Positions 303 through 4,014 of a stretch of DNA of 64,000 nt are shown here, one piece after another (within the stretch, counting starts at the first letter, position 1; each line of letters begins with the position of its first letter). The notes under the pieces are model-generated. The model saw only the letters and a program-made list of their open reading frames with translations, was not told where the DNA came from and ran no database searches. Position numbers and translations under genes: made by a program. The stretch is from Candidatus Nomurabacteria bacterium (GTDB taxonomy: Bacteria > Patescibacteriota > Minisyncoccia > Phycocordibacterales > UBA9973): NCBI GenBank assembly GCA_026395955.1, contig JAPLXR010000008.1, positions 5,179 to 69,178 on the forward strand. The letters run 5' to 3'.

Positions 303-1238
303 ATGGCATCAACAAAAGAAATCAAAAACCGAATAAAGAGTATCAAGAATACGAAAAAGATCACCAAGGCGATGGAGCTGGTGGCGGCTTCGAAGATGCG
401 TAGAGCGGTTGCGACGACGCTTGCTTCGCGTTCATATGCAGGATACTCTTGGGAACTTTTGACTTCTTTGAGTGGGAAACTCGATGAAGTAAAAAATGTA
501 TTTTTTGAATCTCCAAAAGACGGAAAAACTTTGATCGTCCTCATTACCTCAAACGGCTCCCTCTGCGGCGGCTACAATGCGCAAGCGATCAAGAAAGCGA
601 TGCAGCTTATTAAAGCCCCTCTCCTTAATAAGGAGAGGGGTGGGGGTGAGGTTCTTGTGGACTTTATCTCAATCGGCAAAAAAGGCGACCATGCGATGCG
701 AAAGATTGGGCAGAATATCATCGCCGCATTTACCGATTTGCCAGTAAATATTTCAATACAAAATGTAAATCCTATTTCAGCTCTGATTTTAAATGAATAC
801 AAAAAGGGAACATACAAAGAAGTCTTCGTCGTTTACACCGACTTCGTCTCGGCACTCACGCAAAAGCCGAATGTGAGAAAGTTGCTACCGATCTCCCGTG
901 AAGAACTCAAAGAGTTAATCGAGATCGAGAAGCAGGGAACCTCCCCTGATAAGGGGAGGCAGGAGGGGTTGTATTCTGAAATCCCTTATCTCATCGAAGG
1001 CGATGCGAACAAATTGATAGAAATGCTCGCCGAGAAATTGATCAGGATGCAAGTATACCAAATGCTCCTCGAATCTGGAGCTTCGGAACAGTCGGCCCGA
1101 ATGGTAGCCATGAAGAATGCGAGCGAGGCGGCAGGAGAAATGATCGACAACCTCACCCTCGTATTCAACAAAGCCCGCCAAGCCGGCATCACCCAAGAAA
1201 TTTCAGAAATCAGTGCAGGTATGGCTTCAGTAAGTTAG
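303..1238 (+). CDS. atpG: ATP synthase F1 gamma subunit
   Basis: N-terminus MASTKEIKNRIKSIKNTKKITKAMELVAASKMRRA and C-terminal helix are typical of gamma. 311 aa, about 20 aa longer than usual. GC-rich relative to flanking DNA. Confidence 0.9.
   Translation: MASTKEIKNRIKSIKNTKKITKAMELVAASKMRRAVATTLASRSYAGYSWELLTSLSGKLDEVKNVFFESPKDGKTLIVLITSNGSLCGGYNAQAIKKAMQLIKAPLLNKERGGGEVLVDFISIGKKGDHAMRKIGQNIIAAFTDLPVNISIQNVNPISALILNEYKKGTYKEVFVVYTDFVSALTQKPNVRKLLPISREELKELIEIEKQGTSPDKGRQEGLYSEIPYLIEGDANKLIEMLAEKLIRMQVYQMLLESGASEQSARMVAMKNASEAAGEMIDNLTLVFNKARQAGITQEISEISAGMASVS
616..640. repeat. GC-rich perfect palindrome (12-bp arms) inside atpG coding sequence
   Basis: cccctctcctta-a-taaggagagggg. Encodes APLLNKERGGG in-frame. 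Confidence 0.7.
940..959. repeat. GC-rich perfect palindrome (8-bp arms) inside atpG
   Basis: cctcccct-gata-aggggagg. Encodes TSPDKGRQ. Confidence 0.7.
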
Positions 1239-1263
1239 AAAGATTATAATTAATTAAAAATTT

Positions 1264-1662
1264 ATGGAAGAAAATATTACACAAAAAAATTCAAAATTTA
1301 AATCATTCATGACTGACCCATTGTATGTTTTTGTTATACAGATTGCTTTATTCATACCTATGATTTACTTTGTTATTGCGGGAGCATTTAGTGGAAATGG
1401 TACGCCAGCATATATTTTGGGAACAATAGAATCTATTCTTATTGTATGGGGGTTTATACTTTTTATTATGAATATAGTAAAAGGAACAACAAAAGTTGGA
1501 AAGAAAAATTATTTTGCTTCATTTATTTTATTAGCAACTTTTTGTTTAGGAATATGGAGTGTGGTAAATATGGTGCAATCAAATAAAAGAGCAGATGACT
1601 ATAATCAAAGACAAAGAGATATGGCCAGAGAAAGAGACGCAATTTATTATAAGAATCATTAA
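1264..1662 (+). CDS. hypothetical 3-4 TM membrane protein inserted between atpG and atpD
   Basis: 132-aa ORF with 3-4 hydrophobic helices. About 27% GC, contrasting with the flanking atp genes. An AtpI/AtpZ-like accessory role is possible but unsupported. Confidence 0.5.
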   Translation: MEENITQKNSKFKSFMTDPLYVFVIQIALFIPMIYFVIAGAFSGNGTPAYILGTIESILIVWGFILFIMNIVKGTTKVGKKNYFASFILLATFCLGIWSVVNMVQSNKRADDYNQRQRDMARERDAIYYKNH

Positions 1663-1671
1663 AAAATTATT

Positions 1672-3021
1672 ATGAACAAAGGAACAATAAAAAGAATAAT
1701 CGGACCGGTTGTGGATGTGGCTTTCGAAGGAGAAGTCCCAGAGATTTACAGTGCGCTTGAGGTTATGAACGGTGACAAGAAGATCATCCTCGAAGTCGAG
1801 CAGAACATCGGCGGAGGAGTCGTGCGTACAGTGGCTATGGATACTACTGACGGTCTCGCTCGCGGACAAGAAGTCGTAAACACAGGCAAGCCTATTTCAG
1901 TACCAGTCGGTAAAGAAACACTTGGAAGAATCTTCAACGTCCTCGGCGCTGTTATCGACGACGGTGCAGCGGTAAATGCTGACACTTCACCAATTCACCG
2001 CAAAGCTCCAGACTACGTCTCGCAATCTACCAAAATTGAAATTTTGGAAACTGGAATCAAAGTCATCGACCTCATCTGTCCTGTGCTCAAAGGAGGAAAA
2101 GTCGGTCTCTTCGGAGGTGCTGGCGTTGGTAAGACTGTCGTCATCCAAGAGCTCATTCACAACATCGCATCAAACCACGGCGGATATTCTGTATTCGCAG
2201 GAGTAGGAGAGCGTACTCGTGAAGGTAACGACCTCTACCACGAAATGAAAGATTCAAAAGTCCTCGACAAAGTGGCGATGGTCTTCGGTCAAATGAATGA
2301 ACCACCAGGTGCTCGTCTCCGTGTGGCCCTCTCAGGACTCACAATGGCGGAACACTTCCGCGATCAAGAAGGCAAGGACGTCCTCTTCTTTATCGACAAC
2401 ATCTTCCGCTTCACACAGGCGGGTTCCGAAGTTTCTGCGCTCCTCGGCCGTATTCCTAGTGCCGTGGGATACCAGCCGACGCTTGCGACAGAAATGGGAA
2501 ATCTGCAAGAACGCATCACTTCGACCGACAAAGGCTCTGTGACATCTGTCCAAGCCGTCTACGTGCCAGCCGACGACCTCACCGACCCAGCTCCAGCTAC
2601 TACTTTCTCTCACCTTGACTCTACTGTGGTGCTCAACCGTTCACTTTCTGAAATCGGTATTTACCCAGCTGTCGATCCGCTCGACTCATCATCTACAATC
2701 CTCGATCCAAACATCGTCGGAAAAGAACACTACGAAGTCGCTCGTGAAGTACAAAGAGTTCTACAAAGATACAAGGATTTGCAAGACATCATCGCCATCC
2801 TCGGTATTGAAGAACTTTCCGATGCCGACCGTGAGCTCGTCGCCCGCGCTCGTAAGATCCAAAAATTCCTCTCACAACCATTCTTCGTGGCAGAACAATT
2901 CACCGGCGCTCCAGGGCAATACGTCCCGCTCGCAGATACGATCCGTTCATTCCGAGAAATCCTCGATGGTAAGCATGATGACAAGCCAGAGAATGAGTTT
3001 TATATGAAGGGTGCGTTGTAA
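1672..3021 (+). CDS. atpD: ATP synthase F1 beta subunit
   Basis: Walker [17 protein letters not shown]-like region, 449 aa. Strongly GC-rich, about 55% in sampled lines. Confidence 0.95.
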
Positions 3022-3029
3022 TTAAAAAT

Positions 3030-3569
3030 ATGGTTGATGAAATACCAAAAATTAATTTTACGAAAAAGGACATTAAACTTTTCCGAGAAAAAAGTGACAA
3101 GTCTTTAGACAAGTCAGTTTTCTCTTTGTCTGAAGAAATAGATAACACTGAATGGCCTTATGGAGAAAAAGTAATGTTTTTATTAGATGAAAGTAAAGAA
3201 CGTATTGGTCAAATTCAATTTAATTATCCAGAAGTAGATGCGAAAGAAAAACTTTTTAAGATAAGAATGATTGCTCTTGATGATAAGTTTAAAAATAAAG
3301 ATTTAGGTATTGTTCTTTATAAAAAACTTATAGATTTAGCAAAGGAAAAAGGTTTTAAAGGAATCAAGAGTGATAATAGTGTTGGTACTGCAGCAAGTGC
3401 GAATTGGAAAAAATTAGCTGATGAAGGGTATGAGTTGATAGTTAATCTTAAAGTTATTGAAAAATATGAAGAGTTTATAAAGACTTATGATGAAGGAAAA
3501 TATTTTATAGGAGGGTTTCAAGTTCCAAAAGAAGAAAGTGTTTTTGAAATAGATTTAAATAAAAAATAA
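3030..3569 (+). CDS. hypothetical protein, possible GNAT-like fold
   Basis: 179-aa AT-rich ORF between atpD and atpC. Weak GNAT-like pattern (KDLGIVLYKKLIDLAKEKGFKGI ... ANWKKLADEGYE). The assignment is tentative. Confidence 0.4.
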   Translation: MVDEIPKINFTKKDIKLFREKSDKSLDKSVFSLSEEIDNTEWPYGEKVMFLLDESKERIGQIQFNYPEVDAKEKLFKIRMIALDDKFKNKDLGIVLYKKLIDLAKEKGFKGIKSDNSVGTAASANWKKLADEGYELIVNLKVIEKYEEFIKTYDEGKYFIGGFQVPKEESVFEIDLNKK

Positions 3570-3570
3570 T

Positions 3571-4014
3571 ATGGCAAAACAATTAAAACTAAAAATAGTC
3601 ACCCCGGAAAAGCTCGTATTAGAAGAGCTTGTTGAGAGCGTGACGTTGCCGACGCTGGAAGGGGAGATCACGATCTTGCCCGAGCACGTGCCGATAATCG
3701 CAGGCCTCAAATCCGGCGATATTGTGGCTCTCGCAAACGGCGAACATATTCCGTATGCAGTCGTTGGGGGTTTTGTGGAAGTAAAAAAGGAGGACGGCAT
3801 GACAACTGTCGCCATCCTTGCCGACTTTGCAGAACACATTGCCGACATCACCGATGAAGCAATCGAGAAAGCAAAAGCCCGCGCAGCAGAGCTCCAGAAA
3901 CTCGCCGAGAACAAAGAAGTCGTAGACTTCGAACACTTTGCAACAGAGCTCGACCGCTCCCTCACTCGCGTCAAAATCGCGGATAAGTGGAAGACTAGAA
4001 AATATAGGAAGTAA
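3571..4014 (+). CDS. atpC: ATP synthase F1 epsilon subunit
   Basis: MAKQLKLKIVTPEK...LPEH...GGF motif typical of epsilon. GC-rich. Confidence 0.9.
   Translation: MAKQLKLKIVTPEKLVLEELVESVTLPTLEGEITILPEHVPIIAGLKSGDIVALANGEHIPYAVVGGFVEVKKEDGMTTVAILADFAEHIADITDEAIEKAKARAAELQKLAENKEVVDFEHFATELDRSLTRVKIADKWKTRKYRK

Follow-up and report, generated by a model that had tools for sequence, protein, structure and literature searches.

The window analysed here is a 64 kb stretch of the Candidatus Nomurabacteria contig JAPLXR010000008.1, an AT-rich genome of the Nomurabacteria type within the Patescibacteria, with an overall GC content of 32.2% (W stands for the window in the names of genome pairs). At its left end lie three genes for F1 subunits of the F-type ATP synthase, atpG, atpD and atpC. 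These genes are much richer in G and C than the DNA around them and are separated from one another by AT-rich open reading frames (ORFs). The features of the locus are listed below, with GC content given as a fraction, GC3 as the GC content of third codon positions and lengths of proteins in amino acids (aa).

1-297, plus strand: 3' part of the ORF at the atpA/atpG junction, hydrophobic, about 0.24-0.29 GC, at least 99 codons, start upstream of the window; frame 1 open to the stop codon at 295-297
303-1238, plus strand: atpG (F1 gamma subunit), GC 0.457, GC3 0.529; PF00231 at E = 3.9e-83; product 100% identical to the NCBI Nomurabacteria protein P0001
1264-1662, plus strand: o132, at the atpG/atpD junction, AT-rich ORFan, GC3 0.188; three hydrophobic segments by a crude count
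1672-3021, plus strand: atpD (F1 beta subunit), GC 0.499, GC3 0.493; PF00006, PF02874 and PF22919; Walker A motif GGAGVGKT
3030-3569, plus strand: o179, at the atpD/atpC junction, AT-rich, GC3 0.161; soluble divergent GNAT-like protein, PF00583 at 20.8 bits against a gathering score of 20.7
3571-4014, plus strand: atpC (F1 epsilon subunit), GC 0.498, GC3 0.568; PF02823; the last GC-rich gene
4152-4742, minus strand: o196, in the gap between atpC and rsmI, background composition; lipoprotein-like N-terminus MKKKILVILITFATLSAC, as read by eye
4839-5513, plus strand: rsmI-like methyltransferase gene, PF00590, GC3 0.23; conserved downstream neighbour of the operon

The identities given to the three genes in an earlier reading of the sequence, referred to as the initial annotation, were borne out by Pfam (PF00231 for atpG, PF00006 and PF02874 for atpD, PF02823 for atpC), and the diagnostic gamma, beta and epsilon domains of a canonical bacterial F1Fo operon are all present. 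Pfam returned no match for the ORF at 1-297. This ORF had been taken for a doubtful one of 74 aa; with frame 1 open from 1 to 297, it is the end of a longer hydrophobic ORF, which starts outside the window and has no fewer than 99 codons.

In 200-nt windows, the interiors of atpG, atpD and atpC have a GC content of 0.40-0.58, against 0.24-0.31 in the two wedged ORFs and in the DNA on either side. The mean GC3 of the F1 genes is 0.518 and that of the background 0.195 (sd 0.056, n = 48 ORFs; z = 5.8). Sliding-window GC and GC3 therefore agree with the initial description of these genes as GC-rich outliers among AT-rich neighbours. The remaining ORFs of at least 80 aa have a GC3 of 0.11-0.30, with the exception of a PaaX-like ORF (0.45) and L27 (0.35). 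The switches in composition coincide with start and stop codons, across intergenic gaps of 25, 9, 8 and 1 nt, and GC drops from 0.52 to 0.34 across positions 3801-4200, just past atpC. The excess is present at two-fold and four-fold degenerate sites and raises both C- and G-ending codons: NNC/(NNC+NNT) is 0.64 in the F1 genes vs 0.21 in the background and NNG/(NNG+NNA) 0.36 vs 0.15, while four-fold sites carry 0.32 C and 0.17 G in F1 and 0.09 C and 0.06 G in the background. Two-fold sites keep more GC than four-fold sites. In the same comparison of codon classes, ribosomal proteins show a rise in C-ending codons only, and a mild one. With a GC3 of 0.49-0.57 against 0.195 +/- 0.056, atpG, atpD and atpC deviate from their genome in base composition and codon usage, a mark by which islands are recognized. 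The initial annotation had also asked whether other highly expressed native genes are equally raised. They are not: GC3 is 0.19-0.25 in the ribosomal-protein block, 0.28 in DnaK, 0.29 in GrpE and 0.20-0.27 in four aminoacyl-tRNA synthetases. Since all of these stay at 0.19-0.29, neither expression level nor conservation accounts for the GC excess of the F1 genes.

Inside the window, atpG, atpD and atpC are the only members of the subunit set, and atpA had been reported as missing upstream. Its absence is best read as an effect of the window edge. An AtpA of 500 aa (P0125), 98% identical to AtpA of the related locus L081, is recorded on an NCBI Nomurabacteria contig of 101,229 bp; length, source and organism name agree with those of the contig recorded for AtpG (P0001) and o132 (P0121), each 100% identical to the window protein. 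The relatives of the clade to which the window belongs have atpA before a small ORF and atpG: the order atpB-E-F-H-A, small ORF, atpG was found in the five with long enough contigs and likewise in L087, where atpB is cut at the contig end. Among 80 relatives, wherever the contig is long enough, the atp order is the same, with atpA before atpG and atpD and atpC after it. Most probably, the region covers the 3' half of an operon with the full F-type subunit set, still at its native site and ordered atpB-E-F-H-A-(orf)-G-(orf)-D-(orf)-C. This operon departs from the canonical operon, in which the subunit genes are uninterrupted, by the ORFs of at least 99, 132 and 179 aa at the A/G, G/D and D/C junctions. 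Its context (RF1, RRM, atpBEFHAGDC, rsmI) is conserved. The gene rsmI follows atpC in many relatives, the clade loci are syntenic downstream (rsmI, an ORF of 78-81 aa, S41 peptidase, L9, L27) and synteny of the window with L081, L083 and L089 runs on through S41, L9 and L27. Orthologs of PriA, MreB, HolB, RRF and M50, encoded 3' of rsmI in the more distant relatives L001 and L088, were not found in the window. Signatures of insertion were sought around the operon: neither a mobility domain in the neighbours nor a break of synteny was found, and scans of all 64 kb gave neither a tRNA gene nor an Rfam hit at the gathering score.

The closest relatives of the window AtpG are all Patescibacteria. 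Among 66 Patescibacteria loci with enough flanking DNA, the difference between F1 and background GC3 centres on 0, and five of the six largest differences belong to the window clade: the window (+0.32), L081 (+0.31), L085 (+0.26), L089 (+0.19) and L083 (+0.17). The GC-rich atp pattern was also found in L081 (GCA_026396065.1), L082 and L087 (both from ENA), L083 (GCA_964468315.1), L085 (Logan), L089 (GCA_013565695.1) and L091. The F1 genes have a GC3 of 0.43-0.54 in L081 (F0/delta genes 0.26-0.32), 0.30-0.36 in L083 (atpB 0.39), 0.34-0.43 in L085 (atpB 0.39) and 0.31-0.39 in L089, where the F0/delta genes are at background (0.18-0.22). The gene atpE is hardly raised (0.22-0.30), and the GC contents of first and second codon positions (GC1 and GC2) of atpG track the lineage trend of GC3. 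L001, the nearest relative outside the clade (AtpG 77% identical), has an atp GC3 of 0.60-0.62 and 0.45-0.62 in its other genes. The next relative, L088, has no contrast between atp and background, and background GC3 spans 0.16-0.56 among close relatives. The GC-richness of the atp genes, strongest in atpA, atpG, atpD and atpC, is heritable in one small clade and varies between its lineages.

With six compositional switches within 4 kb close to the window edge, the region could be mistaken for an assembly or binning chimera of a GC-rich and an AT-rich population. Nevertheless, the alternating pattern and the synteny recur in seven further loci of the clade, which were sampled separately and assembled by different pipelines (independent NCBI, ENA, JGI and Logan assemblies), the clade-specific o179 and o196 have orthologs in L083 and L087, and the switches fall exactly at start and stop codons. 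The probability left to a chimera is negligible.

Outside the clade, L067 (JBDKLD010000010.1), from an unrelated Parcubacteria metagenome-assembled genome with an AtpG about 50% identical, has an F1 GC3 of 0.52 against a background of 0.35 (+0.17, z = 5.8). Its atp genes lie around 7297-8175 and downstream, with a 1832-nt gap between atpG and atpD. L067 may be an independent second case of GC-rich F1 genes.

Within the clade, the operon is a hotspot of homologous recombination, made of gene-sized mosaic blocks with breakpoints often between genes. In the six genomes with a complete operon, a statistic of the pairwise homoplasy index (PHI) type was 0.396 vs 0.502 +/- 0.005 in permuted data (p < 0.001), and the dominant bipartition shifts from gene to gene. 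Third-position identity between L083 and L089 is 0.78-0.95 in the flanks, 0.57 in atpB and 0.63 in atpC; between L083 and L085 it is 0.76 in atpB, 0.97 in atpE and 0.88 in atpF, then 0.58 in atpH and 0.66 in atpA. In four genomes compared over both regions, split conflict affects 21.5% of informative sites in F1 vs 12.0% in the flanks (p = 0.004). Singletons of L083/L089 vs W/L081 number 198/168 in F1 and 146/487 in the flanks, and divergence between the two closest genomes, relative to the others, is about fourfold higher in F1 than in the flanks. By the PHI-type statistic, the gene-wise mosaic and the split conflict alike, the GC-enriched genes undergo homologous recombination.

The direction of silent substitution differs between the subclades. 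Seven clade genomes were compared at silent sites of amino-acid-conserved codons in atpG, atpD and atpC, and changes from A/T to G/C (W>S) were counted against the reverse (S>W). Changes were placed on the stem of the window and L081 when these two share the derived state and the other five genomes agree. On this stem, 19 changes are W>S and none S>W (binomial p = 2.8e-5). With the terminal branches added, the window/L081 lineage has 44 W>S and 11 S>W changes, an implied equilibrium GC3 of 0.75. In L083/L085/L089 the numbers are 23 and 68, and the implied equilibrium of 0.20 is that of the background (Fisher p = 8.5e-11 for the contrast between the two groups). The 19 stem changes span all three genes and are unclustered (median spacing of 25 comparable sites vs 24.3 expected, p = 0.58), and only one amino-acid change is shared along with them; they look like independent point substitutions and not like one imported divergent tract. 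At the fixed differences between the subclades, L001 has G/C at 60%, vs 82% and 42% in the control classes where all genomes have G/C or A/T, respectively. This intermediate value implies gains as well as losses of GC.

The rate of silent change was also considered. Between W and L083, synonymous divergence (dS) of atpG and atpC is 1.2-1.3, which matches the flanks; that of atpD is lower (0.56 vs 1.1-1.5). Slow silent-site evolution was therefore ruled out as the cause for atpG and atpC, and because their silent turnover is as fast as that of the flanks, a mere lag cannot be what maintains their GC. For the window lineage, the analysis rejects a passive amelioration of foreign DNA, since this lineage gains GC at silent sites (19 to 0 on the stem, 44 to 11 overall). 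The loss of GC that amelioration predicts was found in L083/L085/L089 only (23 to 68), and it fits this sister subclade well.

These results divide the proposal of the initial annotation that the F1 genes are of foreign composition and possibly laterally acquired. Their outlying composition stands. The case for transfer is unproven, given the native synteny, closest relatives found in Patescibacteria only, a sister relationship to L001 that fits vertical descent and the gain of GC. The atp alleles of the clade, GC-rich and AT-rich alike, are monophyletic and sister to the L001 operon. Bootstrap support for the clade with L001 is 100% for atpB, 96% for atpF, 94% for atpH, 86% for atpA, 71% for atpG and 100% for the F1 concatenate (93% after Dayhoff-6 recoding). 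The non-atp markers give several answers: SLT joins the clade with another set of relatives, group A (100%), L31+RRM joins group A with L001 (92%), rsmI and L25 join the clade with L001 (88% and 64%), and RF1 and FADox resolve no grouping of the trio. Because these markers disagree among themselves, the sisterhood of atp with L001 is compatible with vertical descent. An apparent contradiction of the atp tree by the flank genes at 100% was withdrawn, the gene-by-gene trees having traced this signal to SLT alone; SLT has a discordant history of its own. The relative distance between the clade and L001 gives a ratio of 0.61-0.69 in atp vs 1.06 in the flanks, without rate acceleration in group A. 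This lower ratio leaves room for an old exchange and is no proof of it.

Two more specific scenarios were discarded. A fresh import from an L001-like donor was rejected as allele GC3 does not correlate with protein similarity to L001 (pooled rho 0.15, p = 0.38) and the window-specific and stem changes are unclustered. A separate class of 'native' AT-rich alleles was rejected as well, the AT-rich atpB of L089 falling inside the clade.

An older event, in which the ancestral operon of the clade was replaced in place by homologous recombination from a GC-richer L001-like relative and then incompletely ameliorated and shuffled, would agree with the position of all clade alleles next to the L001 operon and with an atp GC3 in L001 (0.60-0.62) that matches its own genome. 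The reduced distance ratio without acceleration of group A, the placement of the clade with group A by SLT and the clear decay of GC in L083, L085 and L089 would also follow. However, the species tree of the trio is disputed, since rsmI and L25 also group the clade with L001 and L31+RRM groups A with L001. The window lineage gains GC, GC-richer alleles are no closer to L001 in protein, and the operon has no flanking mobility genes or tRNA. In addition, rsmI and an ORF of about 154 aa, which have the same affinity to L001, sit at background GC3. Such a replacement is improbable.

A vertical relic, in which the clade and L001 descend from an ancestor that was GC-rich throughout its genome and the clade genome drifted to AT with the atp genes lagging behind, is less credible again, and its probability is small. 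Genomic GC is labile in this group, as the range of background GC3 among relatives indicates, no sampled relative is closer than L001 for atp, rsmI and L25, and more GC is kept at two-fold than at four-fold sites. This is countered by the flank-like silent turnover of atpG and atpC, whose GC3 is still 0.53-0.57, by the low GC3 (0.23-0.35) of the equally conserved rsmI (96% amino-acid identity), DnaK and L27, by the net gain of GC on the window lineage and by the intermediate state of L001, which implies gains too. Replacement or a vertical relic may explain the start of the trait, not its present behaviour.

A deeper discordance was noticed in the same trees. In the F1 tree, group B (L003, L004, L006, L011) falls together with the window clade plus L001 (96%), whereas RF1, L31+RRM, L25 and FADox join the clade, L001 and group A without B (88-100%; flank concatenate 73-76%, 90% when recoded; SLT alone 0%). 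This discordance over group B hints at an older non-vertical history of atp among Paceibacteria.

The ORFs between the subunit genes have a different history. The initial annotation saw host-type ORFs inserted at each junction, which is misleading. A gap of at least 250 nt at one or more atp junctions was found in 27 of 80 Patescibacteria loci, the inserts are nearly always AT-richer than the adjoining atp genes, also in other GC-richer loci, and the junction ORFs of L001, a genome of 48% GC, have a GC3 of 0.16-0.33. Since they are AT-rich even there, AT-richness is a property of the inserts themselves and no sign of host DNA put into foreign DNA. At the A/G junction, the clade relatives carry unrelated ORFs of 65-120 aa with one to three hydrophobic segments each, by a crude segment count. 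The A/G, G/D and D/C ORFs of the window, L081, L082, L083, L085, L087 and L001 are mutually unrelated, with two exceptions. The first is a marginal match of the N-terminus of o132 to the 423-aa G/D ORF of L081 (35% over 75 aa, E = 0.003-0.007, ratio of nonsynonymous to synonymous divergence, dN/dS, about 0.74). The second is an ortholog of o179 at the D/C junction of L083, 41% identical (dN/dS 0.44) next to an AtpD that is 98% identical; dN/dS of the atp genes is 0.03-0.09. No match to o132 or o179 was obtained in the 80 related loci at E < 1e-5, and the only match to o132 among 5.8e9 proteins is itself (NTW62_03010). The o196 protein and a 189-aa ORF at the same place in L087 are 68% identical (dN/dS 0.25). 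The junction ORFs are AT-rich, fast-evolving or replaced, and lineage-specific. The conserved co-occurrence expected of an accessory subunit was found neither for o132 nor for the other junction ORFs, and the idea that the inserted membrane protein is an unrecognised subunit finds no support: o132 has no homolog but itself, and few junction ORFs are related from one sister genome to another. The junction ORFs share the strand of the atp genes, the gaps are 1-25 nt wide, and no terminator-like site was detected on the plus strand from atpG to atpC; co-transcription with the atp genes is therefore probable.

The o179 family comprises proteins of about 170-186 aa in 39 representative clusters. 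PF00583 is matched by 8 of 16 family members (best E = 1.5e-8), o179 itself being marginal at gathering score, and the o179 profile matches the GNAT structure 1r57 of the PDB (E = 1.1e-5). In the AlphaFold2 (AF2) model (pLDDT, the predicted local distance difference test score, 88.4; pTM, the predicted template modelling score, 0.80), the top Foldseek matches in the PDB are all GNATs, with TM (template modelling) scores of 0.4-0.5. As modelled, o179 is a divergent member with a GNAT-like fold. Motif A of GNATs, which binds acetyl-CoA, is Q/R-x-x-G-x-G/A. By eye, it reads KNKDLG in o179, with the first Gly replaced, and RNKGVG in the homolog P0242. The acetyl-CoA motif of o179 looks degenerate, and no activity can be inferred from it.

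The N-termini of junction ORFs often read ME[EGK]xx[KQ] at any junction (MEENITQKN, MEENKEQKK, MEEDLIKKG, MEETKLKNP and MEEKQLQKN, among the window, L081, L082, L083, L087 and L001). An ME start occurs in 8 of 72 window ORFs, so that the shared ME[EGK] is a weak lead only; it could reflect a common translation-start context or a common 5' origin. In L081 (5821-6063) and L082 (2943-3251), an ORF of about 80 aa encoding a membrane protein lies directly upstream of atpB, outside the region covered by the window; the two are 71% identical. This ORF, conserved where the junction ORFs are not, is a better atpI-like candidate than they are.

What holds the subunit genes GC-rich is most plausibly a locus-specific bias in the fixation of G/C that goes with the frequent recombination of the operon, a reading given tentatively and at somewhat less than an even chance. 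The bias toward G/C would act on stretches able to pair with homologous DNA of relatives, namely the conserved atp coding sequences, and would raise or hold their GC3 near 0.5. It would most likely be akin to GC-biased gene conversion. The junction ORFs and flanks, which could not pair across lineages or would recombine less, would stay at the AT-rich mutational equilibrium, and the hypervariable junction cassettes themselves may be why recombinants keep being fixed here. The step from recombination to GC is one that we infer. According to Lassalle et al. (2015, PMC4450053), recombining bacterial genes have a higher GC3 independent of codon selection, an effect ascribed to GC-biased gene conversion. 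The F1 excess looks more like the work of a general compositional force than of tRNA-matched codon selection because it extends to C- and G-ending codons alike, nearly spares atpE and is paralleled by GC1 and GC2 of atpG. A more elaborate version, in which co-transcribed cassettes are swapped between the subunit genes of a hotspot operon and gene conversion drove the subunits about 30 GC3 points up, on or off by subclade, is possible but doubtful.

Several points weigh against a recombination-linked bias. A GC3 contrast of about 0.3 is much above the gene-to-gene shifts usually ascribed to biased gene conversion in bacteria. Being very conserved, DnaK and the ribosomal proteins should be capable of recombining too, yet they are not enriched in GC, and the link from recombination to GC rests on one locus. 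The stem changes lead to C about 13 times and to G about 6 times, and NNC usage in F1 (0.64) exceeds that of L001 (0.58), as selection for C-ending codons would also predict. Polarisation by parsimony is open to distortion by recombination among the seven genomes. Finally, polarised rates of F1 and flanks differed with three taxa (p = 0.013), whereas a stricter test with four taxa, including two concordant outgroups, found no difference between them and returned an absurd flank equilibrium of 0.49. This comparison was dropped as not robust, and within-F1 contrasts between lineages on identical sites were used instead.

A rival explanation is selection on the silent sites of F1 for G/C-ending and especially C-ending codons, strong in the window and L081 and relaxed in L083, L085 and L089, by way of more accurate or faster translation or of the stability or structure of the mRNA. 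It predicts exactly what was observed, namely silent W>S changes that are directional and scattered and leave the protein unaltered. The largest excess is in NNC (0.64) and ATC (0.65), toward which ribosomal proteins lean alike (0.34 and 0.39, vs 0.21 and 0.15 in the background), and dS of atpD is reduced. In contrast, G-ending codons are up about 2.4-fold, unlike in ribosomal proteins, and DnaK, GrpE, the ribosomal proteins and the aminoacyl-tRNA synthetases remain at low GC3. The c subunit is the most abundant subunit of known F-ATPases, and atpE, which encodes it, is barely raised. GC1 and GC2 of atpG follow the lineage trend of GC3, and sister subclades of the same background would be under opposite regimes without obvious reason. 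Codon selection is a serious rival, if a less probable one than the recombination-linked bias.

The GC effects ascribed to recombination in bacteria are modest. The recombination-linked GC enrichment described in PMC4450053 resembles the present case in that GC3 is higher in recombining genes, G- and C-ending codons are both raised and selection for GC is mimicked; it also accounts for non-equilibrium substitutions and for heterogeneity within genomes. There, the published evidence is statistical over many genes, whereas here a single core operon lies about 0.3 GC3 above its genome, with opposite trends in sister subclades and an inferred mechanism. Literature searches found no published report of GC-rich atp genes or of junction ORFs in Patescibacteria.

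Islands of atypical composition that were horizontally acquired reportedly ameliorate toward their host, in the model of Lawrence and Ochman. The operon is like them in a composition and codon usage off those of the host and in having its nearest relatives in a genome of matching composition (L001). Unlike them, it is a core operon in conserved synteny, without mobility genes, tRNA or repeats, and its composition in the window lineage moves away from that of the host. The rfb O-antigen cluster of E. coli, next to gnd, is a hypervariable cassette whose flanking core genes show hitch-hiking recombination. AT-rich, quickly replaced and lineage-specific genes between conserved ones, with mosaic and recombining neighbours, are common to both cases. 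Here, however, single small ORFs are interleaved at up to three or four junctions of an essential operon, and their dN/dS of 0.25-0.74 does not indicate diversifying selection on the putative cassettes. The small extra ORFs of F- and N-type ATPase operons (atpI, atpZ, atpQ/atpR) belong to conserved families, each with a fixed place that is mostly upstream of atpB. They share with the junction ORFs the encoding of small hydrophobic, co-transcribed proteins within atp operons, but those of the window clade show no kinship from one sister genome to the next, and o132 is an ORFan. Intragenomic GC heterogeneity tied to recombination and cassette hotspots flanked by core genes are known already, and the window operon belongs with both.

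Atypical composition is routinely taken for recent transfer. Here a native core operon is the strongest outlier in 64 kb and would be mislabelled by composition-based island callers, which illustrates that composition alone is poor evidence of transfer. One subclade gains GC and the other loses it in the same genes and on the same background. If a recombination-linked bias is true, the paired subclades offer a clean natural contrast between biased gene conversion and codon selection, and the hotspot would be a natural demonstration of GC-biased gene conversion in bacteria at the scale of a locus. The fast turnover of atp junction ORFs, which are widespread in Patescibacteria, indicates that an essential operon tolerates, and perhaps propagates, accessory cassettes.

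Some further features were observed at the end of the operon and elsewhere in the window. Between atpC and rsmI, five relatives carry a conserved membrane ORF of about 154 aa with the motif MARWAIFIVYFWFGILKVFSLSPANP, 54-96% identical (L082 10618-11082, L083 13783-14286, L085 7360-7824, L089 13352-13819, L001 13974-14444). In the window and L087 it is replaced by the minus-strand lipoprotein-like ORF. In L085 (Logan contig), a gene for a 2195-aa RHS/YD-repeat, SpvB-like protein (7878-14465) lies about 570 nt 3' of atpC, after the ~154-aa membrane ORF, at the site that rsmI occupies in the rest of the clade; this adds another rearrangement at the operon end. A second, smaller GC island is the PaaX-like/winged-helix ORF of 168 aa at 40640-41146 on the plus strand (PF20803, 6e-20; GC 0.41, GC3 0.45, G- and C-ending codons raised), flanked by a 100-aa ORF and the GrpE/DnaK block; its AT-rich neighbours are encoded on the other strand. 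L088 has a GC-rich 157-aa ORF between rsmI and PriA (13742-14215, minus strand; GC3 0.49 in a background of 0.22-0.33); kinship of the two was considered and rejected, as they are unrelated. Just downstream of DnaK, at 35919-37910 on the minus strand, a gene of background composition encodes a 663-aa protein with TrwB/TraG-like coupling and HerA/DUF87 domains (type IV secretion) and a treble-clef zinc finger.

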